Shown: positions 8,190 to 59,164 of the stretch, in pieces
Layout of the letters: each line of letters starts with the position of its first letter
How positions within the stretch are numbered: position 1 is the stretch's first letter
Source of the DNA: Chiloscyllium plagiosum
Taxonomy: Eukaryota
Assembly (NCBI RefSeq): GCF_004010195.1
Contig: NC_057729.1
Span: 13,482,777-13,546,776, forward strand
Direction of reading: 5' to 3'
Length of the DNA: 64,000 bases
The notes under the pieces: model-generated
The model's input: only the letters and a program-made list of their open reading frames with translations
What the model was told of the DNA's origin: nothing
Database searches by the model: none
Translations under genes and position numbers: made by a program

Positions 8190-8314
8190 CAATGGCAATA
8201 TCTGGAGGAGCATTGGACAGTAAAAAGAAGCCTTCTCCAGGCCCTGCAATGAGGTGCCTTCCCAGTGGCCTAGCATGGCAGTTTTCAGTGGTGGTTTCTG
8301 GCCCAGTATTCCAG

Positions 8315-8503
8315 GTTGTGGTGCTGGAAAAGTACATCAGGTCAGGCATCATTCGTGGAGCAAGAGAATTGATGTTTCGGGCATAAACCTTTCACCTAAT
8401 GAAGGGCTTTTGCCCAAAACACGATTTGCCTGCTCCTCAGGTGCTGCCTGACCTGGTGTGCATTTCCAACATGACACACTTGACTTTGATCCTAACTTTC
8501 TCT
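8315..8503. mobile_element. Short internally inverted PLE pLTR-derived insertion
   Basis: Two opposed copies of the hammerhead-bearing pLTR end; TSD CAGTATTCCAG at 8304-8314 and 8504-8514. Confidence 0.75.
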
Positions 8504-10226
8504 CAGTATTCCAGCAGTCTGGTGTGGCTGTCTCATCTCTGTTGTGTCTTCAGGATATTCCATTGTTCTTTAATCAGCTTTTCCCAAGCTCAGAAACCTT
8601 TAACTGAACTTGATGGACTTGTTTTAATTTTAATTTTCTTCTTATTATATATGACTTCTGTCATTAATATATGCATGTGGTAGGGTGACTTATAAAATTT
8701 CTCACTATTTTATTTACGTAAAAGTGCACGTGACAACAAATTTTTACTCTATTCTAATTTATATTCTATTCTAATGCATGGTATCTTTGGATTTTATTAT
8801 TTAAAAATTTGAGAAAGATGGGATAGCTTAGTCCAATTGAAAAAATGCAGCCAAAAGCAGTGTTTTTTTGTATGAAGAACAGGGTGGGTTTTGCTCAGAT
8901 TGGCTTAACTTGTGTTTTCTAGAGATTACTTTTGACATGATGTGTCAGGATAATCTGTTGCGTGGTTTCCGAAGTGCGTTAAGTAAAGATATATTTTCAA
9001 ATTGTCCTAACTAAGCTGCTATTGTTATACCTACATCCAGCACAGTAGCTGAAACCTAGATGTTGGGTGGGGACAGAGCAGAGGAACTGCTCCTGACGAT
9101 GTGGGAACAGGGCTCAGGGCTGGAAGCAATAAGTAGGTAATAGGAGGGGAGATGTGGAAAAGAAATGAAAGAACACACTTGCCTTTACACCATTAAAATA
9201 ACAGACTGGAAATTCAGTCAGTCCAGGGTCGGTCTGAAAATTATATTCCTTGTACAGCTCCTTACGCAGCATCTGTTTTACATTGGCTTTATTTTGGATT
9301 CATGAAAGCAAAAGCGTATTTCATCAAATGTAATGTGTTTCATCAAACATGTAAAAAAATTACATTTATGTAGCACCTTTTCATGATCTCAAGAATCTCC
9401 AAATAATTTCTACAGCCCATTAAATACTTCTGAATTACTATCATTATTGCAATGTAGGAAATAATGTTACCAATTTACTCACAACAAGTTCCCTAAAAGC
9501 AGAAATATAATATGATGAGATATGGTTGAGGCATAACTATTGGTAAAGACATGCATCCTTCTTCAAAATATTGTCAGGGGATGTTGAAAGGTTGTTTCCA
9601 AATTCTTCCTCTTGTGATAAGGATCTTTTAATGTAAATATTTACTTCTCACATGCTGAATATATATTGATATCATGCAATTATTATCTCTATTTTATTGA
9701 AGTAATTTAGTCACCATAGGAATGAGCCTTTAACTTAATGGTCTCATCCTTGCTCTGAGTCAGAAACACAATAGGTAAAGAGAGCCCCAATTAGTTCAGA
9801 TATATGGAGTTCCTGGTATGAATTCTGGTTATCATTCACTGGGGTACATGCATCCAATGCATGCTGATGACCCTTTTGTTAAATTAATTGTGCAAATCCA
9901 TAAACCCCTTCCACCATGTTTTCTTTTAGTTCAGTGTTGCATGGAATGCAATTGTCATCATCAAAGTCCACATTTGTTTCTCATTCCCTATTGCCTTCAA
10001 TGATGGTGGGAGCCATTGCAGTGTAGCCATACAAAAAGATGCTGTTAAAAGAGGAGTTTAGAATTTTGACACAGTAATAATGAAGTGACAGTAACATTGC
10101 TTCAGGTCTTGGTGATGTACTGCTTGGAGGATAGCTTGAGATGTTGGTCTTCCCATGCATTTGCAGTCCTGTCTTTCTGAGTCTTCCAGGTCACTGATCT
10201 AGGATATGCAAATGGAAGCGTGGAAA

Positions 10227-10520
10227 TCTGACACTGTAGAAGCAGGCCATTTGGCTCATCGAGTCCACACCAACCTTCCGAAGAGCATTCCATTCAGAGC
10301 TATCCCCTTACCCTATCCCTGTAACCCTGCATTTCCCATGGTCAATTCAACTAACTTGTACATCCCTTGGACTGTGGGAGGAAACCAGAACACTTGGCAG
10401 AAATCCATGCCAACACAGGGAGAACATGCAAAATCCACACAGACAGTCACCCAAGATTGGAATCAAACCCAACTTCCTGGCACTATGAGGCAACAGTGCT
10501 AACCACTGGGCCACTGTGAC
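10227..10520 (-). mobile_element. Degraded HE1-type SINE, nested in an older LINE 3' fragment (~9975-10620)
   Basis: GTGCTAACCACTGGGCCAC (reverse A box) plus the SINE body. Confidence 0.8.
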
Positions 10521-12819
10521 AGAGGCTTGGTAGTTTGTTGCACTACATCTTGTATTTGGCACATATTGCTGCCACAGTGTGTTGGTGGCGAAAGGAGTGA
10601 ATGTTGATATTGGTGAATGAAATGGACACTGAAAATGTTTTTGACTGGTACAAAGATTATTATATACATGGAGGAGTATTCACTGTTCAGGTTATCTGCT
10701 TATTGTTAATCAGCCAGTGCAGCATCTCTTCACACAACTTTGAAGGGGAAAAACGTCTTGAATTATCCAGACCCTCCATTTTTCTTTGACCATGTTAGTG
10801 TCAATCTTGTCAGCTAAATTAGATCTAAATTATAGTTACCCTCGTAGTCACAGTGATTCAGCAGCTCCTTTTTACGCAAGTCCTGGAGAAAAGGCAATTG
10901 AGTACTATGTAAAGTGGCTCATCAAATTGTCATGAGCACATTTTGCACTATTACCAAAGAACAATTTTAACCTCTTCAGCTGCAGCCGAACCATAAATTG
11001 TGCCATTTACTACCATCTTTGTTTCGTAGCTAAGGGCTCATTCGAATTAATATATGATGCCAGATCAATAGTTCCCATCAGCAGTTGATTAGATTAGATT
11101 AGATTAGATTACCTACAATATGGACGTTGTCTAAACTATTGTTTAAAGTTGGCTTATTATACAGAATTCAATACCCCAAATGAAAAACAGGAGAAACTAA
11201 ACCATTCAGTAATAAATTCTTTATTGATTTGAAATTCTGAACAGTTAAAGCTGATTAGAATACAATCATTCTAGACCAATGTTGACTATAATTAAGTTCT
11301 TTGACACTGAGTGCTCAATCTATGTTTGAGTTATGCTGGCACACAACATGTTAAGTGCTTACATCACAAGGTAAACAAACAAATTTAATAAACACTAGAC
11401 TGCACATTTGATAGCTCTTAGTCATTGTACTTCAGTAGATATTCTTAAATTTAGCATGATTATTTCAATGAACATACAATATTTCTAAATTAGCATTTCA
11501 AAGTTTTATGTAGTGTTTTGATATCAATAATACAATATACAATACTTAATGCATGTAAATGAAGTCTAGTCAGCCAGCCAGAAATCTATTGTTAGTCAGA
11601 ATTAACTACATTAAGAGAAGGAATGAACTATTCAGCTATCTGAGCCTGTTTTGCTGTGCAATAAGACCATAAATGATCTGCATCTCAGTGCATTTACCCA
11701 ACCTGCTTCTTTATACAAGACAAAATGGTAATGGACTGCACACTCTGATATAGAAATGTAAAAAATGTTCTAGATTTATCATTAGACTGAAGTGGACTAG
11801 AGTTTTCATGCCGACTTGATCAATATTAAGCAATGAGATTACAAGTGAAGTTAGAAATGTAAATGAACTTCACGCTTTTCCAAAGGAAGTCCCAGAAAGG
11901 AGTTGTGGGTGTGAGATTTTAAAAGATAATTGTTTTAATCTGTATCTTGAACCTCTTCAATGTTAAATGGAGCAGGTGACCTCCTAATATTTTTCCTGGA
12001 TGGTAAACCAATGTGACCTGTTTGCCACGGGGTCTGGGGCCCCAAGGGATGAAACTCAAATGCCTGCTTTCCCAAGTGGAGAGAGAAAGGAGCAGCTAAC
12101 TTTCTGACTAATTCTGAGGACAGAATTTAATGCCTTCTCTTGAGGCAGATTTGTTGTTCAGTGGGGCATTTGATCGTGGGATTCTGAACCTTCCTGTCTC
12201 TATCCTGATTAAGTCTAGGGTGGGAAGGCTTGTTGATTACTTTTTCCAGAACAAATTGAGCCCCTTAATTGGATATTTAATGCCCACTGTGGGCATAATC
12301 CTACTGCCACTGGCATTAATCCAGCAGTAGGTAAGAGTTTCACCATGTGGGGAGCATGAAGAGGAAACCCTTTTGATAATGCCTATTCAAAAGGGGTCTC
12401 TCACTCAAAGCCACAATATCTGATTGATGAATCTAGCATTGAGAAATGAGGGGAATGAGGCTAAGAATGGTACTTCTGCCTTTGATGACAAACTCCCTTC
12501 CCATGGTCTCTGATTCATGACCTCTCTCCAATGATCACTGGCCTGGCTCCCTCAGAGATGCTGAGCCTTGGGGACCACAGGATGCATGATCAGCAGTTAC
12601 CACTGCTTTCCACTGCAACAATGTACAGCTGCCAGCCTTTGATATGCCAGCAGCTCTGATAGGCATTGTTTCCACCTTTTGAATCCAGAAAATGGCAGCT
12701 ATACTGCAGTTATGTACCTGATCAGATTTCATTCAATAGGTGTCCCAAAAATGGGCAATATCAGGCTCTCAAGCTGGTGAAGCAGACCACTTTTATTCTA
12801 CGCAGAGACCAAAATCCCA

Positions 12820-12842: not shown

Positions 12843-15145
12843 GCAGGGAAATAGTAACTTCTGAGAAGCTATCAAGTCTAGTGCAGGTCAGAACACATTT
12901 TCTGATCAAAGTATTGAAACATTTCAGTATTTAATGACACTGAAATATTTGCTTTGGAATGGTTGGGAGAAGGAATTGTCAGAGTAGCTTTGAAACTGAT
13001 TCTCAAAACTAAGTGAACTGACCTTTGACAGACACTGGACATCTTGGTGAAACAAACCTCTTGGAAGATGGAAGTAAAAACTGCAATTCTGTAGAGAATG
13101 CATTGTATTGTATTGTATAAATGTGGGAGGTGAGTAGGGGGATTCTTGATTACGTTAGGTTGGGTGTGGAGATGATCAATTTCTACAGAAGAACTACACC
13201 AATATTTACTCAAGGTCAATTTTAAATTTTTCAATTGAGTCTTAACACATGAAATGTTGCCATGTAGTCCATCAAGTCTTTCACTGGGAATTAAGTATCT
13301 TTAAAATTGCTATCTGTCTCTCTACGGATCATAACAAAGTGTACCTTTTTTTTAAGCTAGTAACTTTGCAGGGTTAAATTAAAATTAAAATTGCTGAAGC
13401 TTTAAAATGTTGACATTTTGGACTGATCATGGACATTCTTTTTCCTCAGCCAATAAAATGCAGTGGATTTTGTGCCGGTAGTCAGGGACCTGTGTTGGGT
13501 GCAGTGTGTAAACAGGCCATGTGGAAATGGAACCAGGCCTAAATGGGAATAGTTGCTTTTTTAACCTGTCCTTTTTATTTACTGTCTGTTTGCAGCAAGT
13601 GAAATAAATTGAAAAAGACCTCTTACTTGTCCACCAGCCACACGTGTAAAGGATGACTATTTCTTTCAATCCAGATTACAATGAGGGAAACTGCAATCAC
13701 CATGATTTCAAATTATTCTATTTCTCTGTCAATGACTTCATACAAAGCTGTTGACTCATTTGTTAGGGTACTGGGGCAAGTCACCATCAAGTGTTTCATC
13801 TGAGAAACCATTGTTTGATATTGAGTCCATCAAACTCCTGAGCTATTACCTTTTGAGATGAGTCTCTGCTTGATGAAAAACAATCTGTGCACCTCCTGCT
13901 ATCCCACTCCCACCAATTCCAAGGGTTCTTTTACCAAGATTGTTTGGTATTTGTGGGTAAAAGGATGCTGCCACCAATCATCCTTGATTGACTGCATCTA
14001 AGGGTTTAATTGGGCTACAGTATTGGAGGATCAAACACTATTGACCCTTAGCAAAACATAATTTACTGAATGATGGTAATTAGGCACATGTTACTTTGGA
14101 AAGATAGACCTTGTAACAAAGACTGTGGAGTCCTAGGATTAGGTCTTCACTCCATGAGGTCTAGAATGATTTGCATAATCCTAACCAGAACATCATCACA
14201 TCGAGTGGAATTTAATGTAGTCCTCAACACTAACACTTTCAGAACCATTAGCTTATTCAACACATAACAGTTTTCCCTCTGTCCACTATTGCCTGCTTCA
14301 AACTTATCATTCACATATTACTGATCTCGCAATTTTGAGCTTTCATTTCACTCATACTCTTCCAATTAACCTCAACTTGTGTAAGTTACAAATCATTCAG
14401 ATTGCTGCAAATTATTCTTGCTTGGTCACCTCTGTCAATCTTGATTCTCCTACACTATGCTACATCCACTTCCATTACCAAATTCATCTCCAGGTCCTAA
14501 ACTTAAATCTGCCTCCAAACCCTCATCAAACTCTATTTTACCAGACTCTCTTCCAGCTTCATATTCAGTCCACTTCTCAGTCACCAAAGTTACACCTTTT
14601 CTTCTCTGCTCCACCATTGAGGGGTGTTCTTTCAACTCTACACACTGAGATTTTTCTTCTTACTACCCTTCTCTCCAACTGAGCTTCTTTCACTCTAGTC
14701 CATATTTCACTCCTGTGTAGTGGTCATTGTTTTCCTTCTCTTGGAGATTCTTTCAAGCTGTCTTTCTGTTTTTATGGAGTGCTGAATATAACAGGTTAAT
14801 GAAGAGGGAAGCATATCCAAATTGAACCCAATACCAAATGCTCAGGACAGCAGATTTTCAGTAAACTTTATTAATTCTCATTAACTGCATGTAGTTCACT
14901 GCATCAATGCTGTCCTTCAAAATGGTTTTTAGATTTATTAAAATAATTGTTAACAGGGTTTTGGTGAACAATGGAGAAGAAATTCATTATTTTTGCAGGT
15001 ATTAAGGATATTATTGCATTTGAAAGCTATGTTGCATGACAGTGCACTATAATACTTTGCCACTGTTCAATTGGCTAAAATAAATAATTTCATAATCTGT
15101 CAGCATATTTAATAAGGTAAACATGGCAGTATTGAATCATTTATA

Positions 15146-15460
15146 TTAGATTAGATTACTTACAGTGTGGAAACAGGCCCTTCGGCCCAACAAGTCCACA
15201 CCGACCCGCCGAAGCGCAACCCACCCATACCCCTACATCTACCCCTTTAACCTAACACTACGGGCAATTTAGCATGGCCAATTCACCTGACCCGCACATC
15301 TTTGGACTGTGGGAGGAAACCGGAGCACCCGGAGGAAACCCACGCAGACACGGGGAGAATGTGCAAACTCCACACAGTCAGTCGCCTGAGTCGGGAATTG
15401 AACCCGGGTCTACAGGCGCTGTGAGGCAGCAGTGCTAACCACTGGGCCACCGTGCCGCCC
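15146..15460 (-). mobile_element. Full-length, well-preserved HE1-type SINE
   Basis: (GATTA)n tail, retained CpGs, ends ...CCACCGTGCCGCCC. Confidence 0.95.
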
Positions 15461-19881: not shown

Positions 19882-20058
19882 GTCCACTGGAAGACAGTAG
19901 CTCCTCCCTGTTCTTTAGGGACTTTAAATGTCAGTTTAAAGTGTAGGGCTAGGGCTGAGTGACAGGGAATTGCTGCAAAACTACTGTGGTATGGTACAGT
20001 CTTCAAGCTCTTCAACATGCTAGTACTGTATAGTGGTCACTTGGTGCCCCCTTGTGTT

Positions 20059-20280
20059 CAAAGTTAAAACTCACACAACACCAGATTGTAGTCCAACAGG
20101 TTTATTTGGAAGCATTAGCTTTCGGAGCGCTGCTGCTTCATTGGGTGGTTGTAGCAGGATGAAGGAGCAGTGCTCCGAAAGCTTGTATTTCCAAATAAAC
20201 CTGTTGGATTATAACCTGGTGTTGTGCGATTTTAAACTTTATATACCCCAGTCCAACACCGGCGTCTCCAAATCATGATT
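20059..20280. mobile_element. Palindromic PLE pLTR-derived insertion with two opposed, mutated hammerhead motifs
   Basis: ~85-bp inverted arms homologous to 655-745 and 1910-1999; TSD CCCTTGTGTT at 20049-20058 and 20281-20290. Confidence 0.8.
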
Positions 20281-20357
20281 CCCTTGTGTTGATCTTCTGA
20301 TTGCATATCAACAAAACAATCCATAAATTAAAATAGCAAAGTACAGCATTATGAATA

Positions 20358-21344: not shown

Positions 21345-22120
21345 TACAACTGACCTCATCTCAAAACACTGTATGTCACTCACTGAAATTGTTGAAGGTG
21401 TTTACAATGTAAGTCATCACTTGTGTCTCAACATTATGCTAGAAATTTGCTGGCATTGGAGGAGGAAAAGCAATAGGACTGCAGATCCAAGTATTCTTTC
21501 CAAGATCCAAGGGGGCAATCCTGTTAAATCTAGCCCAGAAAGAACCTTCTGAGAAATCAAATACAAATACTTCACCTGACCTCTTCTGCACATTCTACTG
21601 ACTGCCACTTCATGCTGATCTCCATATTTCTTGAGTTAAATGTGTATCATGCTGCAAAGACAACATGGCCATTGAATATAAACTTGATCCCCACCTGCAT
21701 AAGATGTGCAGCACATTTTTAATGTGCAGAGGAGACTATGCCACAAAGCTTTGACCGTTATTTATGAAACCGTTCTGAAGACGAGCCATACCAGACACGA
21801 GACATTAACTGTTCCTCTCTTCACAGATGCTGCCAGACCTGCTGAGTTTCTCCAGCATTCTTTGTTTATTTCAGATTTCCAGCATTGCCAGTATTTTACC
21901 ATTTTATTCTTTATCCAACATTTTTTGGGTTCAGGACAGGCAAACTGGATTATAATCCACCCACCAGGAATAGGAACTGCAGCTGATCTTTTTTCATGCC
22001 CATATTAGCTGCCTGATTGTATGTCTGGATGAAAATAGTCAACTCAAAATCCAGGAATTAATCACAGGAATTATCTGGTCTGTATGGCTCACATCTCTGG
22101 CATTAATGGAAGGTGAAGAA

Positions 22121-22548
22121 GGTCGGACGGTCGGAAGAGGAGCGTCTTATCTTCCGACTGGGAACCCTCCAACCGCAGGGGATGAACTTGGACTTCACCA
22201 GTTTCTTCATCCCCCCTCCCCCCACCTTGTCTCAGCCGGATCCCTCCAGCCCGGCACCGCCTTCCTGACCTGCAGTCTTCTTCTTGACCTCTCCGCCTCC
22301 ATCCTACTCCGACCTATCACCCTCACCTTGACCTCTTTCCACCTATCACATTTCCAACGCCCCTCCTCCAAGTCCCTCCTCCCTACCTTTTATCTTCTCC
22401 TGCTGAACACTCTCTGCTCATTCCTGAAGAAGGGCCTGTGCCCGAAACGTCGAATCTCCTGTTCCCTGGATGCTGCCTGACCTGCTGTGCTGTTCCAGCA
22501 ATAAAGTTTCAACTTTGATCTCCAGCATCTGCAGACCTCACTTTCTCC
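22121..22548 (+). mobile_element. Penelope-like element 3' end
   Basis: Translates as RSEEERLIFRLGTLQPQGMNLDFTSF (GIY-YIG C-terminus); hammerhead motif; perfect 14-bp TSD TGGAAGGTGAAGAA at 22107-22120 and 22549-22562. Confidence 0.9.
22420..22455 (+). ncRNA. Intact minimal type I hammerhead ribozyme motif
   Basis: AUUC-CUGAAGA-A-GGGC(CUGU)GCCC-GAA-ACGU-C/GAAU: canonical core, GUC cleavage triplet, 4-bp stem I and palindromic ACGU stem III. Confidence 0.85.
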
Positions 22549-24211
22549 TGGAAGGTGAAGAACACAACAACGTCTCTTACATGTCTTGGCCAAGAAGTTT
22601 TAGAAGAGGACCTTCAGTACTTTACTTGGGAACCTCATGCCTCAGATCTGCGGGCAGGCAGCCAAAAGCAATGGGTCCCACCCTGGTGTTCAGTTAAATT
22701 TAGTCAAGACATTGATCATGTCATTGGGCTATAACTTTTCATTATTCGTTAGGTTACTGCTTGCTTCTTGTTGGAAGCTCACTAATGGTCTGCTCAGGGC
22801 TTGAGGAAAATAAAAATGGCTATGAAGCCAACATGTTGGTGCTAGTCGGGAAAATTTTACAACTTCAACCTTTTCCTAGCCATTCTCAGAGGAGGGACAA
22901 TTAATTGATTAAAACTGTGGTCTCCCTATATGTGACATTTAATGCTCAGTTTCTTCGATTGCAAAAATGTACTTAAAATTAATTGTCCAAAAATCTGGAA
23001 ATTAAAAGCTTCAGTTATTATTTATTAAATTGATGTTTGTATTTGTTACACCAGCTTACCATTAGGATTATGTTTCCATCTATATCTTTGTCCATTGCTG
23101 TATTCTCTGTTGCAGTATGTTGTCACAACATCACAGGATTATTCACACAGTACATGCAATAGTTGATATTATCAGCATTTATCAGACACAAGCCAGTACG
23201 AAGGGCTTAGAGTTGTGGTTGCTGAGAGGTCACAGCAGAATTCCTCAGACTGTCCATTAGTGGATAATCAGAGAGAAAATTGAATTTATTATTGAGAGGT
23301 TGCCCTGCAATAGATTATTAAAATAATTACTTCAAAATATAAACCAAGAAATCCATTTTATTATTATGTTTTATATTAATATTGAACACAATAGTGTTGT
23401 AGGACTTTTTTCTGTATGTTCCTTTAAATTTTGCTTTTATCCCGATCATAACCATATGTTATGTCATATTGCCATTATATAACTGACTTTACCTAACCAT
23501 CTTTTGCAGGCCATTTGAAAATTAGCAGCTAACAGAGCATCTTAAAAACACTTGCCATCGACAGGATATCTTGGATTAAGTGTGCAAAAATGTGGTCTAA
23601 GCTATTAACTCATGATACCTTGGAATCTATAAAGATCTAGAGTTCTCCAGTGTTCAGAAAATGTCAAGGATCTTGAGGCTTGCTAAATAAACTTTCACAC
23701 ATGTCCCTTTTGATCTTGATTAGTTTTTTTTTAGGCTTGTGCGTTGTTTTGAAGGAGCTTGACAAATGGTATGATGAACATACAAAAAAGGAACAGAAGT
23801 GAACCATTCACCCCTTAAGACTACTTTGCTGCTCAATAACACCATGGGTGATTTGTTCCTATGTGATGAAAGCTAATATAAACAGAGGGTGCTTTAAACG
23901 AAGTGTGAATGGAGTGTTCCAAACTCAGGTGAGTTATGAAAGCAAAATACTGTGGGTCACAATTCATAAATACCATCCACAATCACACAGGCTGCTCAAA
24001 GACATGAAGCTGATTTCCTGTCTCCTTGAACTGCAAGGATTCAGCAACATGATCTTATTTGCAATGCTGCTTTTCCTAGGTGATTGGGGAAAGAAGCTTT
24101 CAGTGATCTTTATCACAATTAGAACTCCTACTATATTTGCATGACTTGGCTGCTGTCATATTCATTGGAATATGGTTCTTTTGTTAATTAACCTTGTTAC
24201 ACCAAATGTGT

Positions 24212-29471: not shown

Positions 29472-29533
29472 GGGTGTCAGCGGTTCCTGCCCCTGGGGAC
29501 CCACCAGGAACCCTTGATAAATTTAAAGGTGGG
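29469..29533 (+). promoter_or_regulatory. gag amber-readthrough signal with H-type pseudoknot
   Basis: TAG, then spacer GGGTGTCA; stem 1 GGTTCCTG (29482-29489) pairs with CAGGAACC (29505-29512); stem 2 CCCAC (29500-29504) pairs with GTGGG (29529-29533). Confidence 0.75.
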
Positions 29534-35124: not shown

Positions 35125-35125
35125 T

Positions 35126-35738: not shown

Positions 35739-36393
35739 ATGGTGCACTGCAGCAACTCAGCAGGGGCTGCTTACACAGCACCTTCGAAATCTATGACCTC
35801 AACGACCTGGAAGTAAAAAATGAAGAGGCAGTGCTCCGAATTCAAATAAACATGTTGGACTATAACCTGGTGTCATGCAATTTTTAACTTAGAAGTAAAA
35901 AGGCAGCAGATGTTTGGGAACACCATCACCTGCAAATTCCCTTCAAAGTCACACACCATCCTCACTTGGAACTACATCATTGTTCCTTCACTGTCATGGA
36001 GATAAAATCCTGAAACATCTTTCCTAACAGCACTGTACACGTTCCTACACCAGATAAACTGCAAAGTGGCATAAGAAATGGCTCACCACAACTTCCCAAA
36101 GGCAGTTAAGAATAAGCAGCAAATGCAGATCTTGCTTGTGATGCCCACATTCTGTGACAGACTAAAATAAACACCTGACCGCCATCTTGATGGGTGATCC
36201 CGGTGCTTACCCAGAATGGAGTAGTAGGTAAATCTGCAATCCCATTGGTTCTAATTCTGTCTTATGAAAACAAGGATATTAGTGACTCACAGTTGTGCTG
36301 TAGGAAATGTCTGAAAATGTATGGAAGTTTGGCAGGAGCACTTTAAAAGTCTCAAACAATGCTTGTTGCCATGTGGTAAGTGACTTGAAATTA

Positions 36394-39681: not shown

Positions 39682-41029
39682 ACAATATGTCATTGTACTA
39701 TAAACAATTTTTGTCTCAGTTGATGAGGAAGGGTATATTGGTCTTGAAGAGAATGTCATCAAGATCACTGAATTGATTCCAGCAATAAGAGGCTGCTGTT
39801 ATTTCTCACTGTTAACATGCCAATAAAGCATGCATTCATGACATCATCATAGCATATGTCCCAATATTATTCTGCAAGCGTAAAGATCACAAACTCCATC
39901 TTAATTTGAATCCCTTGAAGCATGGCCTCCAATAGGAAGTGTGGTGTTCTGTAAAACCTAATAGCTTAATATTAGCCAAGACACTGGTGAGCTTGAGAAT
40001 GTAATGTTGGTATATCCTAACTAGTTTTGGTAAATCTGTGTTTTTTTTTCAATATCACAATATCATGTAGAATATGCTACTGTGGTTAGCACTGGTGACT
40101 GTCCATGAAAAGTCCATGTAGTAGATATTTAGAAAATGATTTAAAACCTTCTCGACAATAGGTTTGGACATCAAAAATTTCAGACAATCAATAACATCAG
40201 TTTCTGAGAGTACAGGCAGCCAAATGTATCTGTTGATAGGGTGCTGAATTCCAAGAACTAATTGATTTTTTAAATCAAAATGTAAGATCCTTTGAGATAC
40301 AACAAGTGTTTACGAGTGCCTTTATTTACAAATATGAAAGACTGAAGTCACAAACACAAGCAAAACTGAAAGCTAAACAGTGACCGCTGTAAATCTCTCC
40401 CTCTATTTTGTAAAAAAAGGGAATAAATCTAACAACATCCTGTTGTTAAATAGAAGGAAGGAAGTTAAATAGTTGTCAAAGCATAGCATGTCAAGAAAAA
40501 GAGTCATCCATTGGCATTACTTGAGCTAGACCAGAGTGTGAAGCCACAGTGGAAGCTGTAGATTATTTTATGCTTTAGGCGCAGCTAAGACTACGGTTAC
40601 AGTCAAAACAGTGCATCCAAATATCAAAATCTGTTGTAGGTTGATGTTTGTCACATTTACCCAAAGTTGTCCAGTTTTTCTTGCTACCTATACAGCAGGT
40701 AAAACTAAAGGATACTGGATATGGATGTGCATGAAATATGTGTTTCCAAAGGTCAAGCTAAATGCCAGAACAAAACACAAGTGACCAGCAAGACTGGCAG
40801 TAGGCAAAGTATTAAGAATATGCACAACTGCAAACATGTCAATTACGTTTTGAGTCAACCAATTGAAAAGGCAAATTTCAGAAGATGATTTTCCATAATG
40901 CGAACCTCACACTTGTGTTAATATATCAGAAAACATTTTGAACCTTTCCAGACCAGTATATAATCACCAGATCAGGATGAATTGACAAACACCTAAAGCA
41001 TTACATTTAATGTTGAAATGTTAATTTTG

Positions 41030-41159
41030 GGAGAAAGTGAGGACTGCAGATGCTGGAGATCAGAGTTGAAAAATATGGCACTGGAAAATCAAAGCAGGTT
41101 AGGCCGCATCTGAGGGGCAGGAGAAATGACGTTTTGGGCATAAGCCCTTCGTCAGGGAT
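41030..41159 (-). mobile_element. Short PLE pLTR end with degraded hammerhead
   Basis: Reverse of 22420-22548; imperfect TSD ATGTTAAT(T/G)TTG. Confidence 0.75.
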
Positions 41160-41924
41160 ATGTTAATGTTGAATAGTATTATTATTACAATAATTCTTTG
41201 CATTGGCAGTTCTCTGTTCAACGGCAGTTTGAGGAATTGCAATCAACCCACGCTAGGCAACACGATTACAACAAGGTTGGCACGGTACCTGTGGAGCATT
41301 GTGAGAAAGATTCATTGCTGCAGGAAGAAAACATTTATTTTCAAATTTGGAGGGAGTGTTAGTGTGTTGTTAATAAAGTCATGTTCCTGATATCAAAGGC
41401 ATTGCTATTTTCTTTCTAACTTCCTGGAATCTTCTATTTTCATAATAATACAAAAATGTTAATATTGTACAATCTACTTTACCTGTTTGCAGAATTATCA
41501 AATTCACAACATATGGCTATGTACAACCATGCCTACCTGTTTGGAATTTATTTTGTCTTTGAAAAACCAGGAAATTGTGTTGTATGTTAGCGTATCTTTA
41601 AAAGACAAGCTCATGACATCATCACAATTTCATAGCATGTGATTGAAGAGTATTAGCTCTAAACCTTCATCTTAAAGAATGATGTGCTACTAGAATCAGG
41701 TTATTCTAAAAACATGGGGGTTAATGTTAGACCGGACACTGATGTAATTGTGAAGGTAATATTTGGACTTAATAGCCAGTTATAATGAACACCTGATCAA
41801 TTTCTTACGTATGGGAGATTACATAAATATGGCTCCATCAGGTAAGATTTACAACTGGAGGCAAAACCCATATTAGACTATTGTTCTATGAAGATAGATT
41901 TTACAAAGTGGATCAAAAGTCTCT

Positions 41925-44028: not shown

Positions 44029-44844
44029 AAAAGAGTTCCAGAAATTGGGCCAAGGCAATTGAAGACATAACCAAGAACAACGATATGTTTAAAATCGCGG
44101 TTGCTCAAGAGATCGGAATAAAAAAAAATTGTAGGGCAGTAAGTGATTACAAAGATGGGGAATGCAGAGGCCAAAGAGGAATTTATACACAATGATGAGA
44201 GTTTAAAATCAAGAAGTTGCTTGACCTAGAACCAAGGAGGTCGGTCAGGTCAGTAGCGGTGGGTGAACGGGACTTATGAATGAGAGTGTGGGCAGCTCAG
44301 TATTAATGACTTTATATTTATTTAGGATAATTTGTGGGGGCCCATCCAGAAGTGCATTATTCAAGTCTGATGGTATGGTAGATAGGAAATGAGTGTTCCA
44401 CCAGCAGAAAAGCTGAGATAAGGGAGAAAAGCTGATTCAGTGATGGACATAGAGAAGCTTGGTGATGGTACAGATATGAGGTTGGAAGTTCGTTGTAAAA
44501 TGGGACACTAAGATTACAACCAGGCTGGCTTAATGACAGACTGTTGTTAGGGAGAGAGGTGAAAGCAGTAGCTGGGGAATAGAGTTTGGAGAGGAGACTG
44601 ACACAATGGATAAAAATTCTGCTTACTCAGCATTGGATGTTGGATACATAGTCTGATGAAGTAGCAACAGGGAAGGAGTTAAGTGAAGTAATGATGAAGG
44701 AGGACTGAGTCATTGGCCATGTGTAACATTGTGCTTTTGGGTGATATGACTGAGATAAGAAATGGAAGAGGACCAAGGCTAGATCCTTAGAGGAGAGCAG
44801 AGGTGTTGGTGAGGGAACATAAAGAGAAATAACTGCAAGAGATT

Positions 44845-45048
44845 GAAACAAAAACAGAAATTACAGGAGAAACCCAGTAGGTCTGGCAGCATCTGTGAAG
44901 AGAAGCAGAGCACATCCGAAGAAGGGTCATGAGACTTGAAACATTAACTCTGATTTCTTTCCACAGATGCTGTCAGACCTACTTAGTTTCTCCAGCAATT
45001 TCTGTTTTTGTTTCAGATCTTCAGCATCCGCATTTTTTGTTTTATTTC
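44845..45048. mobile_element. Short internally inverted PLE-derived insertion (third family)
   Basis: Inverted arms AAACAAAAACAGAAATT...GCAGCATCTGTG and CACAGATGCTG...AATTTCTGTTTTTGTTT around a degraded hammerhead; imperfect TSD TGCAAG(A/T)GATT. Confidence 0.65.
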
Positions 45049-45500
45049 ATTGCAAGTGATTCTCTGGCTGCAATTAGATAAATAAGAATGAATCGAGATC
45101 TACCCAGCTGAATAACACCAGAGCAGCATTAGATGGTGCAGTTGACTAGGTCAAAAGCTGCCAAGAGATCAGGAAGGGTGAAGAAAGAATGTTGGACCAC
45201 AGGAATCTATTAAGATTTTCTGGTGTTTATTGCCATATAAGGTGTTTATGCTAATTCCACTCCACTGCTCACTCCCCACTTCTATTTGGAATTGTTTTAC
45301 AGACTCCTGTTCATGGCAGAATTTTTTCTCTAGGTTTAATTGTAGAGAAGGTTAGGCATTCATTTTATTTAATACTAGATAGTGGTACAGTTTCTTCTGA
45401 TCAGTGATGTCAATAGAATAATACTGGTATATATTTTGCTAATCTTCGTGGACAAACCAGAATGCTCTCTGATGCACTGCAACTTGTTATTTGAGCCTAG

Positions 45501-45518: not shown

Positions 45519-48364
45519 CTTGCCATTAGTTTCCCTGGTTTCCACTCCATAATGGAAAAAAAGCACCTTGGCCTTGATGACACATTTTGTCATTTTTAAA
45601 GATCAATTTATGTTTTTGCCTCACAAACCACAGTGTATGATGAGGCTTTCATTACTAAATTTATTACTAAATTTGGGACACTATTCTTTATCCTCTAACA
45701 ATGGATGCGAGGAATAAAACAAACTGGGACCTTGTTCACTTCTATGGTTTGTAAATAAAACAAAAATATATCAGTCGTAAGTATCTAAGTAAATTTTATA
45801 ATTGCATTGCTTTCTGTTTTAGTGTTGGTTATTTATATTTGATTTATACAGTTTCAGTAGCTATGATATCAGACCACTGAGGCCATTAGTTATAATTACA
45901 CAGTTTATATCTGACAATATCATCAATGCTTCTATTCAACAAAAAGAAACTCCTGTATAATGCATACAGCAAGGTTCCCTTCCATGCCAACCACATGTAA
46001 AGTATTAAGGATGGTGGAGATCTGAAATAAAAACAAAAGGTGCTGGAAAGGCACATTAGGTCAGGTAGCATCTATTCAGATAGAAATTGAGTTAATGTTT
46101 TGAGTCTAATTTGACTCTCTTGAGAACTGGAGTTATTAAGTGGACATGTTGCATGTAATAATGAGTGCTGTACTCCATGAATGGGAGGCATGTACACTGG
46201 CAGAGTTAGATTGAGTGATGGCCCAGAGTATGAGGTGGCAGCGAGTTTGTTTTGCACTGGTGTGCATTGTATTTCACCCAGGCCCGCTATCCAGTGCTGA
46301 CTTGCGTTTGGTGGTGGGGCCTCTTTTGCCAGGCAGCAGGGAAAAGCCATTATCCTCATTTCCAACACTGTGTCCACCAGGATCTTGAGGTCTCTGCCAG
46401 TGAACCGAGAAGCTTACTTACCTTTCTCAGTCGGTTCCTTTGATGAAACAGTGAGAACAGCAGCTCCAGGTTTGCACTTGTTGAAGTGATGAGATGCTGA
46501 GCTTTAGATAAGGTGCCTGGCAGCATAAGTGTTGCAAGATCCCAGCAGCGGTGATCACTTCCACCTCTCTTGCTGCACAAGTTCATGAATAGGGTGCGAA
46601 AGAAGCTGGCTGCATAGTTACAATATTGAAGAATAGAAAGTTGCATGAAAAATGTTGACTGTGGCAGTTTGGATGCTGTCTGAATTTTATTTGGAAAAGA
46701 AATACTTTGCCAAAAAAGTTGGAAAATTCAGTCCAGTGTTTCCATGGTAAAATCCCTTGATCTAGAACATGATTTACCAACAACCCAGCTTTTGCAAAGT
46801 TATTTGTTTGCTATTGTAACAGTTATTTGTAATAATTAGAGTCAAAGTAAGATCATGTAATTGTTTTGTTGGGAATTGTAATATTGACTGCACTTACAAA
46901 CATTTTATATATTCAACTATCTTACTTGTAATGCCTGCTCTTTGTTATAATATATAAATTTAAAAAGTCAAGACCCTTGCATCCTCTATTTATTCTTGTT
47001 AACACCATAATTATGGTTTTCAGTGAAAAAGCATCATGGTGTTGATTACACATTGTGTAATTGTTAAAAGTCAATTTACACTTTTGCATCACACACCATA
47101 GTGTTGGGTGATGCTTTTCATTATTCCAAATTTGTTTTCTTTAAATCAGATTTCCAGATATAATAATAAATTCAGGAAACCATTGTTTCCCATCTTTCCA
47201 TGTCTCCAACAGAAAAAGAAAACCTCTTCATTAAAATTCAACCAAGAGGAATTTTCCATTAAAGGTTACAAATGAAAGACAGTTCTCAGTAAGAAATTTC
47301 TTCACTGGGGATCAATGTATCTCTCATTGCAGGGTGCTGTTTTGAATCTGTCAATCATTAAATATTGCTATGTACTTGGCTGGTATTGCTGGATATCTTA
47401 TACAACAACTTCAGATCAGTGATCAAGAGCTGTGAAGAGTGATCCTCCCAATCATTGAGAACCCTGCTCAATGATTGAGTTGCCATACGGCAGCTGATTA
47501 GCATAGAAGAGGTATCATCCTGATATTAATAAGTGTGATGTGTTTTTGACAACCTCTCTTCATGAGATTTTCATTAACGATCAGCTTTTAAAAAAAAATG
47601 CATTGCTCTGAAATAGTGGTCCATAAACTCCCTTTCACTTTCAGTAGACATATAATAGACAGATTTGTGGTGTATTTATAAGGATTAAATAGCTCAAACT
47701 GTTCACTGAACCTACACAGTTAGTACTGACAGAATATACTCTTCACTGTTTACATTAATTAGATTAATTTTGCTATTTTAAATTGAAATGTTAACCAATT
47801 TAAAATAAACTGTCTGACCATTAAACAACAAAATTGAATCCATTAAAGTTGCATGGCAGTATAATATCAACACTGTGAGCTCGCATACAGTAGGATCTCA
47901 CAGCTTAATTTCTGGCATCCACCCTGTTATGTTACTTGAAATAACATTATTCTGATAGATAGCAGCCATGAAAGTTCCAAGCAATTAAATGCAAATTATT
48001 TGAGCTTGCTGTAATGGTGCAGTGACAAGCTTTTTGTCAGAATCCTGGAAGGTGCTGGCAAATCACTATCGCACTGATAATAAAAATCTAAGGAAAGCCC
48101 CCTGTAAAATTAATGCATGTTATAAAATACAACAGATACTCATGAGAGCAGCAGAATGATCTAGTAATAAGATAAAACTAACACTTAAAGAAACAATTTA
48201 ATTTTGTTCTTGTTGATCTTATGTCACCAATCTTCACTGTGCACCATTAATAAAAAAGTTGACTTTATTACAGCTTAATTGTTGACAGGGACCTTTTGTA
48301 TGGATGTGTAAATCCAGATTAAATCACTTTGAAGGGTTTATTTATATGATGTGCATCTCTATGA

Positions 48365-48530
48365 GCCGAGAGTGTGGTGCTGGAAAAGCACAGCATGTTA
48401 GGCAGCATTTGAGGAGCAGGAGAATCGATGTTTCGGGCATAAGCCCTTCATCAGGAATCGGCTGTGCTTTTTTTCCAGCACCACACTATCGACTCTGTTC
48501 TCCAGCATCTGCAATCCTCACTTTCTCCTG
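48365..48530. mobile_element. Short internally inverted PLE insertion with hammerhead motif (minus strand, ~48423-48458)
   Basis: Perfect 14-bp TSD GTGCATCTCTATGA at 48351-48364 and 48531-48544. Confidence 0.85.
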
Positions 48531-49002
48531 GTGCATCTCTATGACTCTATAACTGAGTTTTAGAAAAAGCAGCATTGGGATGGGACTGGAGGTGGTTGGA
48601 AATACTCAGCAAGTCAGGAAACATCTGAAGAAAGAAACAGAATAAAGGGTCAGATGAAAGGGAATTGACTTGAAAAGTCAACTCCATATTTTCCCTCATT
48701 ACACATGTCATGATATTGTACGATCAGGCAAGCAACTGTAACAGAGTTAAGGATGGTGACATCACTGTGACATTGTATCTTGGGCCATCCTTGTGTAAAG
48801 GTGAAGCTATCAACTCCAGCTTACTGTAATCAGGAAAGTATTTAGTCAATCACCTTAAGGCCAACTGACACCCACAGGGGGAGTTTGGGATGCTTGTGAC
48901 AAGTTTTCTAAATTGCCAAAAGATATGTCTATTACAGAGTTCTGACATATTTAGCAGCTCTATGAATAAATCTTCTGATACTTGACCTCAGTAAGAACCC
49001 TG

Positions 49003-51686: not shown

Positions 51687-51950
51687 TAGAGTCATAGAGG
51701 CATAGAGATGGACAGCACAGAAACAGACCCTTCGGCCTAATTCATCCACGCTGACCAGATATCCTAAATTAGTCATCGCAGTTGCCAGCACTTGGTCCAT
51801 ATCCCGCTACACCCTTCCTATTCCTGTACCCATCCAGATGCCTTTCAAATGTTCTAATTGTACCAGCTCCACCACTTCCTCTGGCAGCTCGTTCCATATG
51901 CGCACCACCCTTTGTGTAAAAATGTTACCACTTAGATCTCTTTTAAGTCT
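51687..51950 (-). mobile_element. CR1/HER1 3' end
   Basis: Homologous to 43397-43670. Confidence 0.85.
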
Positions 51951-53112
51951 TATGATGAGTTGCTACATCAATGCATCATGTACATATTTACTTTTTTTGT
52001 GGAACTGTATGAGAATAGAAAAGGGAGGAGCGCACAGGTTTGAGAATTACTGAGGGACGAAAGGGGAGGTTGGACAGGTTCTGGTAGAGAGCATCCAAAG
52101 ATGGAGGGAAGTCCTCTACCTGCAATATGGACAAAGGCTGTTCTTCTGTTCCTGTTCCTCCTGCAGAAATCTTCTCTTCCCAGCCTTAAATCCAATTTCC
52201 AACAAAGCCTGCAAACAATGTGGAACCAATAACAAAATGTCAGTGACCATACACTCCATTTCTCCTGGTGGTGCAGCATCCACGCACTTGCTCTTTTTAA
52301 GTAAACCCTTCAGAAAGCGTTCCGAAATAAATATTGCCAGTAGTACCTTGATAAGGTGTCCAATAAATCCTGTTGTAAGATGTCATAAGTCTTCTTCAAA
52401 CCTCGGGCAATAAATGGTGATGTATCTTTAAATGGCAATCAAAGTCTTCCACGTATTCAGAGGATGTCGGATCAAGTGAAATGTTGTGATGCACTTAATG
52501 AAGTATTAGATATAAAATTAAGTGATGATCAGTGCCTTAACAGTTAATTGCACAGCTATTCCCAATGCTGGTATCAATTCCAATACCATGCATCTTGTGG
52601 CAATCTCAGAGTAAACCCCTACTGTGGCTTAAGACTCAATTTTGATCACATGGAGGTCCATTATTCTTAGATAATGTATCTAGGAAAATTGTTTCCTTGA
52701 TTTTCTAATAGACAATTGCCATATTACCAGAGTAATTGTATGAATCTTGGTTCAAAAAGTCGAACATGCCACAATTAAACAATAAGAACAAGTCATAACT
52801 TTAGTTTTAAAAGACTTACATGCAATATAAAGCATTTAGCTTCTTTTGAAATAAAACAAAGTCTGACAAGAATTGATGAGCAGTAGCTTTGATTCTGTTA
52901 TTTTCACTTTATCCACAAGATGGCACAACAGTCATGTAACTAATCTTCCCCTCTGAAAAAAAGTGAAGAATTTTACAGATGCTGGATATCTGTAACAAAA
53001 GAAAACAGAAAATGTGGCCGGTCTGGCAGCAATTGTAGAGAGGGAAAACAGGGTTGATGTTTTGAGTCCTGTGACCCTTCATCAGAACTTTTCCTTTGTA
53101 ACATGTCTAATA

Positions 53113-55690: not shown

Positions 55691-55765
55691 ATTGATTATT
55701 CTATATCTTGGCCTCAGATGGCTGTGTCCAATGTAATGCTAAGCGAGAAGTCTTCTGTTAAGTGG

Positions 55766-55884
55766 GAGAAAGTGAGGACTGCAGATGCAGGATTCCTGAT
55801 GAAGGGCTTATGCCTGAAACATCAATTCTCCTGCTCCTCGGATGCTGCCTGACCTGCTGTGCTTTTCCAGCACCACACTCTCGA
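55766..55884. mobile_element. Short internally inverted PLE insertion with hammerhead motif (~55793-55827)
   Basis: TSD CTTCT(G/A)TTAAGTGG at 55752-55765 and 55885-55898. Confidence 0.8.
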
Positions 55885-56162
55885 CTTCTATTAAGTGGTC
55901 CTACACAGAGTTCAGTAGCAATGTGCAATTGTGAACATTTTTGCTGTTTTGAGGATAGATCTGAGTAATGATCTGACTTAGTTCAATTCTCAATAAAACT
56001 TTTGTAGACACATAAAAATTCTTTTGTTTGATTAATGTGATTTGATTGGTTGAATACTGCAGTTTCAAGTTTGCCCAATGGCAGTACTGTCAATTGAAGA
56101 CACTGGTATGAGAGACTCTTGCAGCATTTCATTAACAGTGAAATGTAGCCCACTAAAATTGG

Positions 56163-56274
56163 TGATTTGGAGATGCCGGTGTTGGACTGATGAAGGAATA
56201 GTGCTCTGAAAGCTAGTGCTTCCAATTAAACGTGTTGGACTATAACCTGGAGTTGTTTGATTTTTAACTTTGTA
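56163..56274. mobile_element. Short internally inverted PLE insertion (family of 623-1992)
   Basis: Inverted terminus joined to CTGATGAAGGA...GAAAGCTAGTG; TSD CACTAAA(A/G)TTGG at 56151-56162 and 56275-56286. Confidence 0.8.
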
Positions 56275-57020
56275 CACTAAAGTTGGATTTGTGTTTTGGG
56301 GTAATATCTAGAACAGACCAGGAAGTGATGAATAGTATATCTAAAGTTATTACATTTGAATTTTATGCCTTGGGACTTCTTGAGCACCATGAGGGCAGAA
56401 TCTTTTGCTCCTGGAGATTGTAAGAGAACATAATTAGGCTGAATGATAGCATAAAAATGTTTGTCAGCTTCCTGCCTCCAGCAGAATTACGTTCATGGGA
56501 TGACCCTTGACCAATGTTCCTGTTCTGTTATCAACTGAAGCCTTGAAATGACCAATTAGAGACCACTTAAGGGTGTCAGCCTATTGCCATCGGTATTAAT
56601 CTGGTCCCAAATGAGTATATCACCATGAAATGTTCACCACAGCCTGCTCTGCAAGCAGCTTGCCATCTGGATGGTCCTATGACCAAAGGCAATCAGTGCC
56701 TGACTGCACTGGGAATGGGAATACCAAATGAGAACAATTCCCTTGCATTTATTTCTGACTCCGCTGCCCTCTCTCCCTCAATGCAACCACCAATTTGAGA
56801 AATAGCCCCAACACCAACACCAACACCACTACCATCCCTACTTGCTGACCACTATCAACCCTCCCAACCACCACCATCTTTGTCCTGGGTCCTTTTTGAT
56901 CTTGGGAATCTGGAGCTGCTCTTCTGGCAGTAGCCAGGGTCTCCATTAGATGCGACTGCCACCCATGTGGTCTTGATTGCAGCTGAAGACCCCTATGAGG
57001 TGGAATTGCCATTGACTGAT

Positions 57021-57300
57021 TTGATTAGATTAGATTCCCTACAGTGTGGAAACAGGCCCTTTGGTCCAACAAGTCCACACTGACCCTCCAAAGAGTAACC
57101 CACCCAGACCTATTTCCATCTGACTAATGGGCAATTTAGCACATCTTTGGACTGTGGGAGGAAACTGGAGCACCTGGAGGAAACCCGTGCAGACACAGGG
57201 AGAATGTGCAAACTCCAAACAGACAGTCGCCCGAGGCTGGAATCGAACCTGGGTTCTTGGTACTGTGAGGCAGCAGTGCTAACCACTGAGCCACCCTGCC
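57021..57300 (-). mobile_element. HE1-type SINE
   Basis: Tail, body and reverse A/B boxes. Confidence 0.9.
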
Positions 57301-57480
57301 GTGTGTATGTGGTTTAGTGGGTCTTTCCTTGGAAGAAGCAATGTGGGTCTTTCGTTGGCTTTTAAGTGGTTGATGAGACCCATGAAGGCTCAAGAAGTTT
57401 CCATCCTGGATTACAATGATGAGGCAAAGCTGGATCGTCAGATGAGCTGCTATACCAACTACTCATTTAGGTGTAAAATA

Positions 57481-57795
57481 AGATTAGATACCCTACAGTA
57501 TGGAAACAGGCCCTTCGGCCCAACAAGTCCACACCGACCCTCTGAAGAGTAACCCACCCAGACCTGACATTTATCCCTGACTAATGCACCTCACACTGTG
57601 GGCAATTTAGCACGACCAATTCACTTCCTGCACATCTTTGGATTGTGGGACGAAACCGGAGCACCTGAAGGAAACCCATGCAGACACAGGGACACAGTGC
57701 AAACTCCACACAGACAGTCACCAAAGGCCGGAATCAAACCCGGGTCCCTGGTGCTGCGAGGCAGCAGTGCTAACCACTGGGCCACCGTGCCGCCC
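57481..57795 (-). mobile_element. HE1-type SINE
   Basis: Tail, body and reverse A/B boxes. Confidence 0.9.
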
Positions 57796-57991
57796 ATAAA
57801 ATAAATTGTGACACTGTTCAGAAGAGATGTAGGGGTACCAATATTTAGCTTCATCCAAAATCATTGAAACAGATATAGTCTTTATCTCATTTCTGCCTGT
57901 GGGACCTTTTATGCACAAATTGGCTCTGTATCATTTTTATTTCAACAGTTATTACTTTTCAAAACTACTTGATTGGCCGAAAAGTGTTTTA

Positions 57992-58165
57992 AAGTTGAAA
58001 AGTGTGGTACTGGAAAATCCCTGCAGGTCAGGCAGCATCCAAGGACCGGGTGAGTTGACGTTTCAGGTATAAACCCTTCACCAGGAATGTTTGCCTGACC
58101 TGCTGTGCTTTTGCAGTACCACACTTTTTGACTCTGATCTCCAGCATCTACAGACCTCACTTTCT
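57992..58165. mobile_element. Short internally inverted PLE insertion
   Basis: TSD GA(A/G)AAGTGTTTTA at 57979-57991 and 58166-58178. Confidence 0.8.
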
Positions 58166-59164
58166 GAGAAGTGTTTTAGACCACTTGAGATTGTGAATAG
58201 GATGTTATCTATTTTTCCTACTTAAAGCTAATTCCTTTTAATTGGTGGTTCAAGCTGTGATTACAGTCATGAACTTTATTTGTATTGAAGTGAGGGATTA
58301 AGGGACAGAAGGCACATTGAGAGAACTGATCTCACTTTTCAGTTAGCCTGGCTACCCTTGGCACTCACGATAGTATGTTTGGCTCTCCAATATTTCTCAA
58401 CCCAATGACTACAGAATGACTTGAAAAAAAAAGTTTGCCTTTATGAGTTTGAAATTTGATTGAGAAGATGGCATGATGATATTATGATATTGTAAAGTGC
58501 TCAGCTATAATCTCTTGGGCTTCGAGTGCACAGTTGGAACACCAAGAAATCTGTCATGTCATATTACTTGCTTTTTAAGTTCATGTGAAGCGACATATTA
58601 CTATCCACTTTTAAGTGCAGTTGTGAATAACTTTTTAACCTCAAGCTTACCCCCGGTGGGATGTATAATTCAAAATAAAGTACTGCAAATGCACTTTGCA
58701 TCAATGTGTCCTCTATTATGTCCCTCACTGCTGGGACTATCTTTAAGGTGAAACCTAACCATAATGAAGTCAGAAGCAAGATGTGACTCTCATGCATTGA
58801 AATGTTTTTGCTTCTAATGTGGATATCTCTACAAGACAGCTTCCCAATCGATAGAATATTAACCATGTGTCCTTTTAACTATGCTGGTAGACCTCCTGTG
58901 GCACTGCACAATGGTGTACAATGTATGGTGGAAGTTTCTGAGTCGTGTAGAGGGGAACAGTGAAATAAATGCATGGATAGTGAGTAGACCTTTATGAAAT
59001 GATATCATTGCAGATGGTCAACAAAGGCAAAGGCAATTTTCTTAGGCATCGACAACTTGTGACACATGATATCCTACATTGTTGGTTGATCTCTCATCAC
59101 ATTTTTAGTGGAAAGGAGCACTAATGCACAATTATTCTTCTGCATAAGGAAGAATCAGTATAAC

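Follow-up and report, generated by a model that had tools for sequence, protein, structure and literature searches.

Penelope-like elements (PLEs) that carry an endonuclease are described as 5′-truncated copies with an adjacent inverted pseudo-long terminal repeat (pLTR), a one-sided tail of 30-40 bp and a short flanking duplication (PMC3846280, PMC8557442). Metazoan pLTRs contain hammerhead ribozymes, and hammerhead pairs on opposite strands, 100-700 bp apart, were ascribed to truncated PLEs in 2014 (PMC4209133). A lizard PLE protein, Poseidon of Anolis carolinensis (PAc), is a predicted dimer; in vitro it cuts AT-rich DNA on both strands, extends both, and begins copying at two internal sites of the RNA that bound the tail (PMC11167929). 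An internal initiator-type promoter has been mapped in the pLTR of Drosophila Penelope (PMC2377424), and dual priming on two RNAs has been proposed for the retrotransposon L1 (PMC2837659). Here we analyse 64 kb of the shark Chiloscyllium plagiosum (NC_057729.1, positions 13,482,777 to 13,546,776; hereafter the window), in which seven short inserts, with 14 arms in all, consist of two opposed pieces of pLTR sequence; with a longer insert at 623 they make eight inverted inserts. We read them, with a probability of roughly 0.65, as 5′-truncated PLE copies formed by two-site priming on both target strands, with copying stopped at an RNA start 4-5 nt before the hammerhead core.

The head-to-head inverted pLTRs, one-sided tail, short duplications (10-14 bp here, 8-10 bp there) and solo pLTRs are those of the published PLE unit, whereas here the whole insert measures 110-220 bp, the inverted piece may consist of nothing but the tail, and the arms tend to begin at the hammerhead's 5′ edge, a clustering not seen in the available passages of those reports (PMC3846280, PMC8557442). 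PAc offers a parallel in the cutting and extension of both target strands, the AT-rich targets, the dispensable cleavage and two internal start sites that bound a tail about 110-150 nt after the hammerhead; that work covers 3′ (start) ends in vitro, and its available text reports no 5′-side stops, inversion junctions or pLTR poly(A) site (PMC11167929). The hammerheads resemble those of metazoan PLE pLTRs in their short helix I, bulged base before helix II and palindromic helix III, as well as in the many solo copies and the opposite-strand pairs at a spacing of 100-700 bp, but the parts of that survey available include no sharks and map no junction positions (PMC4209133).

In L1 twin or dual priming both target strands also prime, and two inverted pieces lie inside the duplication, but twin priming gives a deletion and non-overlapping pieces, whereas the inserts here have fixed internal start sites and overlapping arms in 6/8 cases (PMC2837659). 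An L1-type twin-priming product was rejected because poly(A) is lacking and the pieces are non-overlapping in 2/8 only; the process nevertheless works like twin or dual priming. Non-LTR retrozymes are likewise hammerhead-bearing, non-coding and derived from PLE pLTRs, and were ruled out because they are described as tandem head-to-tail units with intact hammerheads, while the inserts are single or head-to-head with decayed cores (10.64898/2026.07.22.740005). A literature search that covered papers outside subscription found neither clustering at the 5′ edge nor a poly(A) site that precedes the priming sites within a pLTR, and the clustering may already be in print. The same search found PLEs joined with strong stop, template jump or twin priming only in two papers on long interspersed elements (LINEs), and shark PLE hammerheads only in one review.

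Layout of the short inserts

Families were sorted by self-comparison of the window and arm-by-arm alignment, and arm 5′ ends are counted from the leading C of the hammerhead's CUGA box. The seven inserts lie where an earlier note on this DNA had placed them, the one at 44845 ending at about 45050, and alignment splits each into two pieces that face opposite ways and belong to the same one of three repeat families (Table 1). All seven are flanked by duplications of 10-14 bp with at most one mismatch (p = 0.0007-0.008 against 1500 random position pairs with equal spacing); the longer copies at 623, 6915 and 22121 have exact ones of 14, 10 and 14 bp. Each family has two recurring outer ends, a tail-less one at about +88 to +100 and a tailed one 30-35 nt further on. 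One arm reaches the family 3′ terminus in 7/7 short inserts, and all eight inverted inserts are head-to-head, with a tail of 30-35 nt at one outer end and none at the other. All three families carry, at about +45 to +57, a run of 6-9 nt that can pair with the tail (seen at 622-752 (-), 22418-22548 (+) and 44915-45048 (+)); its letters differ in family 2, and the pairing would place the tail-less priming site in a loop.

An assembly or library fold-back artefact was ruled out, the arms being 75-96% alike rather than identical and the inserts being flanked by duplications. Both arms share subfamily letters, as read by eye, in the inserts at 623, 20059, 44845 and 57992, which is expected if each insert is one event. 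Some of the earlier description went too far. The inserts are not hairpins at 55766 and 56163, where the inverted arm is a 27-nt tail alone without overlap with the other arm. The term MITE-like (miniature inverted-repeat transposable element) is an overstatement, and a MITE itself was ruled out, given that there are no matching terminal inverted repeats and no fixed unit, that the ends differ by the tail, that two inserts have non-overlapping arms and that all seven junction pairs in the window differ from one another; identical junctions had been named as the sign of an amplified subfamily.

Many arms begin at the hammerhead 5′ edge

The inversion junction had been placed at or near the hammerhead 5′ boundary in most inserts, and in the window this is borne out for 7/7. 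Nine of the 14 arms start within -8 to +4 of the CUGA box, with at least one such arm in each insert. When starts were drawn at random for inserts of 110-222 bp total length, the simulated chance was 0.158 for one insert and 2.5e-6 for all seven, the 13-nt window having been picked post hoc. Five further solo stubs begin at -4, about -4, about -4, about -3 and +3, two of them with significant duplications and three read by eye. Four family-1 arms (41029, 48365, 55766 and 57992) start exactly at -4, and of the five long arms of the window (623 twice, 6915, 22121 and 63593) two, 22121 and 63593, carry an exact YYANWYY initiator whose A falls at -4. These coincidences suggest that the reverse transcriptase (RT) most likely runs off the 5′ end of its RNA at this point, and we lean, by a little, towards equating the arm stop with the start of the template RNA. 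An extra G before the -4 start, a possible cap trace read by eye, occurs in two of the four arms and is explained by the other arm in one of them; we made no use of it.

In 6/8 inverted inserts the tail-less arm extends further upstream than the tailed arm and neither contains the other, which excludes a simple fold-back of a single complementary DNA (cDNA) and calls for two priming events; that two such events lie behind the inserts we consider highly likely. The arms overlap by 30-366 nt in 6/8 inserts, and those at 55766 and 56163 do not overlap, as in L1 twin priming. In one event, the two strands of a staggered cut of 10-14 bp would prime reverse transcription, one at the tail end of the RNA and the other about 30-35 nt further in. 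The longer cDNA would run off the RNA 5′ end at the initiator-like A, the other would often be cut short, and repair could then join the two head to head. Long copies would form when copying starts in a downstream pLTR or goes on by a jump. The two-strand cut and two start sites of the PAc protein (PMC11167929) would explain the duplication, the opposed arms and the one-sided tail. The earlier proposal of a reproducible footprint left by two-ended priming thus finds support in the duplications, the head-to-head arms, the clustered starts and the 6/8 non-nested arms. The observation is real, abundant and of a known kind, and to call it an under-described system was too strong, since inverted pLTRs with a one-sided tail and a duplication have been published (PMC3846280, PMC8557442).

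Table 1. Coordinates of PLE-derived features in the window. Starts are given for tail-less/tailed arms, as reported; ORF, open reading frame.
Feature	Insert	With duplications	Strand	Duplication (matched letters)	Arm starts	Parts
Long family-2 insert	623-1992	609..2006		14 bp (14/14)		Tailed inverted arm 623-1022 (-); sense copy 1024-1992, beginning in PLE ORF end; arms 96% alike
Family-2 poly(A) hexamer and addition sites	684..705		-			In pLTR, upstream of tail-less (+89) and tailed (+121) ends
5′-truncated family-1 copy	6915-8189	6905..8199	+	10 bp (10/10)		PLE RT coding 6915-7547; N gap 7548-7995; pLTR with CUGA at 8109
Family-1 inverted stub	8315-8503	8304..8514		11 bp, 8304-8314 and 8504-8514 (11/11)	+4/-1	Tail-less 8317-8394 (-); tailed 8395-8503 (+), tail with 16-nt deletion
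Family-2 inverted stub	20059-20280	20049..20290		10 bp (10/10)	-8/+2	Tail-less 20059-20152 (-); 5-nt spacer; tailed 20158-20275 (+)
Family-3 solo stub		21771..21908	+	Not significant (p 0.09)	~-4	
5′-truncated family-1 copy	22121-22548	22107..22562	+	14 bp (14/14)		PLE ORF end 22128-22235; initiator-like motif at -4; intact minimal hammerhead 22424; tail
Family-2 solo stub	35820-35891	35810..35901	+	10 bp	+3	To tail-less end
Family-1 solo stub, non-inverted	41030-41159	41018..41171	-	12 bp, 1 mismatch	-4	To tail end
Family-3 inverted stub (44845)		44834..45061		11 bp, 1 mismatch (10/11)	~+32/-1	Tail-less 44844-44910 (-), from near predicted cut; tailed 44915-45048 (+)
Family-3 solo stub		46010..46126	-	None scored	~-4 (by eye)	
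Family-1 inverted stub	48365-48530	48351..48544		14 bp (14/14)	-4/+60	Tail-less 48365-48458 (-); tailed 48461-48528 (+)
Family-3 solo stub		52960..53089	-	Not significant	~-3 (by eye)	
Family-1 stub	55766-55884	55752..55898		14 bp, 1 mismatch (13/14)	-4/+97	Inverted tail only 55766-55792 (-), from +97; body 55792-55884 (+), from -4; no arm overlap
Family-2 stub	56163-56274	56151..56286		12 bp, 1 mismatch (11/12)	0/+95	Inverted tail only 56163-56189 (-), from +95; body 56187-56274 (+), from 0; junction shares 3 nt
Family-1 inverted stub	57992-58165	57979..58178		13 bp, 1 mismatch (12/13)	-4/+50	Tail-less 57992-58088 (-); tailed 58092-58165 (+)
Longer family-3 copy	63593..63800		-			Upstream sequence present; initiator-like motif at -4

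The three families and their PLE origin

The RT fragment at 6915-7547 (family 1) resembles shark RT proteins at 64-87%; its closest named relatives come from carpet sharks and rays, with 87% to a Chiloscyllium punctatum protein. Pfam gave no match for this fragment or for the 28-aa ORF end, so homologues were required for domain assignment. Homologues P0001 and P0003 match RVT_1 above the cut-off, and P0002 matches PF01541 (GIY-YIG) at E 2.5e-4 and 21.7 bits, slightly below the cut-off of 22.6. The family-1 ORF end at 22128-22235 matches the C-terminus of P0004 (E 5e-11), and the C-terminus of P0002 is matched as well; the family-2 sequence at 1024-1185 matches the same PLE C-terminus weakly (32%, E 3e-6 pairwise). 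Cysteines were seen by eye within the linker that joins RT to endonuclease of P0002, P0004 and P0012, a region that falls in the N gap of the window copy; this cysteine-rich linker of the family-1 relatives, as described for the Neptune and Nematis groups, is a difference from PAc. The two halves of the copy at 6915-8189, on either side of the 448-base gap at 7548-7995, are joined only by the flanking duplication and family identity. In the long family-2 insert the 3′ untranslated region, which separates the ORF end from the pLTR, contains a degenerate CA microsatellite (1213-1500).

The earlier attribution of all three families to PLEs stands at the protein level for families 1 and 2. Family-3 copies in the window gave no tblastn match to PLE proteins, and family 3 was placed with PLEs by its hammerhead, its tail layout and its similarity to family 1. 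The features of an endonuclease-bearing PLE found here are the RT in the linked longer copy (family 1 only), a C-terminal GIY-YIG followed by a pLTR, a minimal hammerhead in the pLTR, and a one-sided tail with an adjacent inverted truncated copy. A minimal type-I hammerhead descriptor, written after PMC4209133, matched the window at 744 (-), 1910 (+) and 22424 only, three matches compared with 0.05 per sequence among 40 controls. The hammerheads of the long copies have the intact minimal form with covarying stems and are predicted to cleave, at +28 and +29 for the descriptor matches and at +30 for family 3 as judged by eye. By the strict descriptor the core is intact in 0/7 short inserts, where it has decayed. 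Rfam found no hammerhead in the window, giving only three microRNA (miRNA)-precursor matches below threshold, and two pLTR modules folded no more stably than their shuffles (z -1.12 and -0.18). Taken as a whole, the inserts are very probably by-products of autonomous PLEs and do not form a mobile system of their own.

Family 2 in public contigs and RNA

Genome-wide data were gathered for family 2, from public contigs matched to window positions 400-1030 at likeness 80; organism A contributed two runs and organism B one, with 57,435, 46,424 and 42,716 contigs. The contigs hold thousands of family-2 ends. The element exits at 621-623 into unrelated AT-rich flanks in 2,855 contigs of run X1 and 2,813 of run X13 (agreement 0.35-0.36). 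Among 15 of the 119 rows of joints, seven are strand switches, and in 6/7 of these one side falls at 745-749 (-1 to -5). The leading joint, 713/749, occurs in 18, 1 and 15 contigs (18 in X1, 15 in X13) and in four RNA reads; loose ends at 713 simply continue the element. Summed depth falls 4- to 8-fold from bins 730-751 to bins 752-773, just upstream of the hammerhead, and the contigs show several skips within the element. Pattern scans for further copies returned no loci in metagenome contigs and none in viral contigs; three bacterial loci in genome contigs were dismissed as chance, with only 24-27 nt matched.

Run X21, of which about 2% was covered, consists of poly(A) single-cell reads from one sample. 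In it, poly(T) stands before 684 in 567 reads and before 687 in 460 (1,027 in total), placing sense-strand poly(A) sites at +60 and +57, 12-15 nt past an A(A/T)TAAA hexamer at +38 to +40, where the DNA is not an A-run. Because the read mates extend past the hammerhead, to about 250 nt upstream of it, the sites mark the 3′ ends of longer RNAs, which are either those of the PLE or host transcripts that end in a PLE fragment. The poly(A) site precedes both putative priming sites (+89 and +121). The hexamer is missing in four of the five family-1 and family-3 pieces scanned, and the fifth has it at +76; the poly(A) geometry therefore applies to family 2 only.

Weighing two-site priming with a stop at the RNA start

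Several observations weigh against this interpretation. The exact initiator is missing in 3/5 long arms, and family-2 starts are scattered (-8, 0, +2 and +3). Because the arms overlap in 6/8 inserts, one RNA could not template both without strand displacement, or two RNAs are needed. The start in Drosophila Penelope is upstream by 46 nt plus an intron of 75 nt, and what falls at the helix I edge is the end of that intron (PMC2377424, PMC4209133). Arms within old inserts are 75-88% alike, no closer than to other copies. An empty site was sought only at 623 and none was found, while an organism-B contig crosses its left junction (506-644, under a 31-letter bridging rule). The joint evidence comes from 15 of 119 rows, and 713 coincides with the cut predicted for the majority sequence as well as with a 2-nt indel at which alignments break, so that the 713/749 joint can be read neither way and leaves some room for a cleaved template or an amplified subfamily; 749 may be an alignment break as well. 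Depth, which is no copy number, regains about one third of the pLTR level at 774-905, so its drop is partly subfamily divergence. The family-2 data contain no pile-up of molecule starts or ends, and hence no RNA 5′ end.

Two-site priming could also operate with copying halted at -8 to +4 not by the transcription start but by a structure in the RNA, by a protein bound to it or by a splice boundary at helix I. In each of the three families the clustered starts fall on the 5′ strand of helix I, the Drosophila Penelope intron ends at that edge (PMC4209133), and family-2 starts spread over 11 nt. We nevertheless regard such a stop as unlikely: an RT travelling 3′ to 5′ should presumably be held up on reaching the 3′ foot of a structure and not past it, the five long arms have no AG acceptor at that edge, and four family-1 arms end at a single nucleotide, the A of the initiator-like motif.

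The earlier note had favoured a short, ribozyme-processed pLTR RNA, whose 5′ end would be made by hammerhead self-cleavage. The intact minimal hammerheads and covarying stems of the long copies fit this proposal, as do the side at 713 of the best-supported contig joint, which equals the predicted cut, and the arm at 44845 (~+32), the only 1/14 to begin near the cut. But in 9/14 arms the core upstream of the cut is present, whereas the 3′ product of cleavage would be without it, and 713 is also an alignment break. In vitro, cleavage was dispensable: hammerhead mutants left PLE insertion unchanged, and no RNA-seq reads ended at the cut in the account available (PMC11167929). The ribozyme cut most likely does not set the junction, and a self-cleaved template is improbable.

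Fold-back self-priming, in which the cDNA snaps back and copies itself, was proposed for rotifer Penelopes (PMC3846280) and fits the inserts at 8315 and 44845, whose tail-less arm is contained in the tailed one. Its simple form is impossible for the 6/8 inserts in which each arm holds sequence that the other lacks, and 55766 and 56163 are without any arm overlap, so that we think it equally improbable as a general account. Amplified non-autonomous subfamilies, like MITEs or short interspersed elements (SINEs), copying a fixed inverted unit would agree with the great abundance of the families and the recurrence of the 713/749 joint (18 contigs in X1 plus 15 in X13), yet the differing junction pairs, the ends that differ by the tail and the variable duplication length of 10-14 bp make them very unlikely. 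Long inverted inserts that later lost their centres find a precedent in 623-1992, in the deletion within 8315 and in the contig skips, but such losses are hardly credible, as they explain neither the single-nucleotide peak at -4 nor the solo stubs at 41029 and 35819 that start at the same place.

Neighbouring features

The window is vertebrate DNA, with an intact 340-aa ORF of a rhodopsin-family, melanocortin-type receptor (PF00001) at 18613-19635 (-), which we take to be melanocortin-3-like; the insert at 20059 lies about 420 bp upstream of it. A degraded family-3-like fragment (48595-48641 (-)) is found 65 bp to the right of the insert at 48365. Direct repeats at 27032-27507 and 35125-35642, 95-97% alike and about 8.1 kb apart, enclose broken retrovirus-like pol fragments (ORFs 27909-32378) and probably represent a long terminal repeat (LTR) element or provirus. 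Many LINE-like RT fragments (3013-6440, 37882-38667, 43362-44031 and 51687-51951) and a SINE-like short repeat family (10214-10525, 15145-15461 and 57024-57796) are also present.

Implications for PLE replication in sharks

In retroviruses, minus-strand strong-stop DNA is made on a genome with a U3-R-U5 layout. The order in family 2, with a putative start at -5, poly(A) addition at +57/+60 and probable priming sites at +89 and +121, is similar, so that copying which begins in a 5′ pLTR would yield a short cDNA, and this would have to jump; the differences are that priming here is from the target, with no tRNA primer, and that the jump is only postulated. The position of the family-2 poly(A) site before the priming sites thus raises a tentative and rather doubtful model in which the shark PLE pLTR works like a retroviral LTR. 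RNA would start at the helix I edge and be polyadenylated about 60 nt later in the downstream copy, leaving priming sites only near the RNA 5′ end. Each round would produce 95-130 nt of strong-stop cDNA per target strand, which must jump to the repeated 3′ end for the ORF to be copied; stubs would be failed jumps, and success would regenerate the pLTR.

The layout of these inserts is already known, and the value added here is in the fixed stop point, together with a poly(A) site that precedes the priming sites. With thousands of copies, the shark genome offers a large fossil record for testing the strong-stop-and-jump model. The stubs may mislead the annotation of miRNAs and MITEs, as the miRNA-like matches that were all Rfam gave illustrate. 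The family-2 pLTR, acting as a poly(A) site in thousands of copies, may end many host transcripts.

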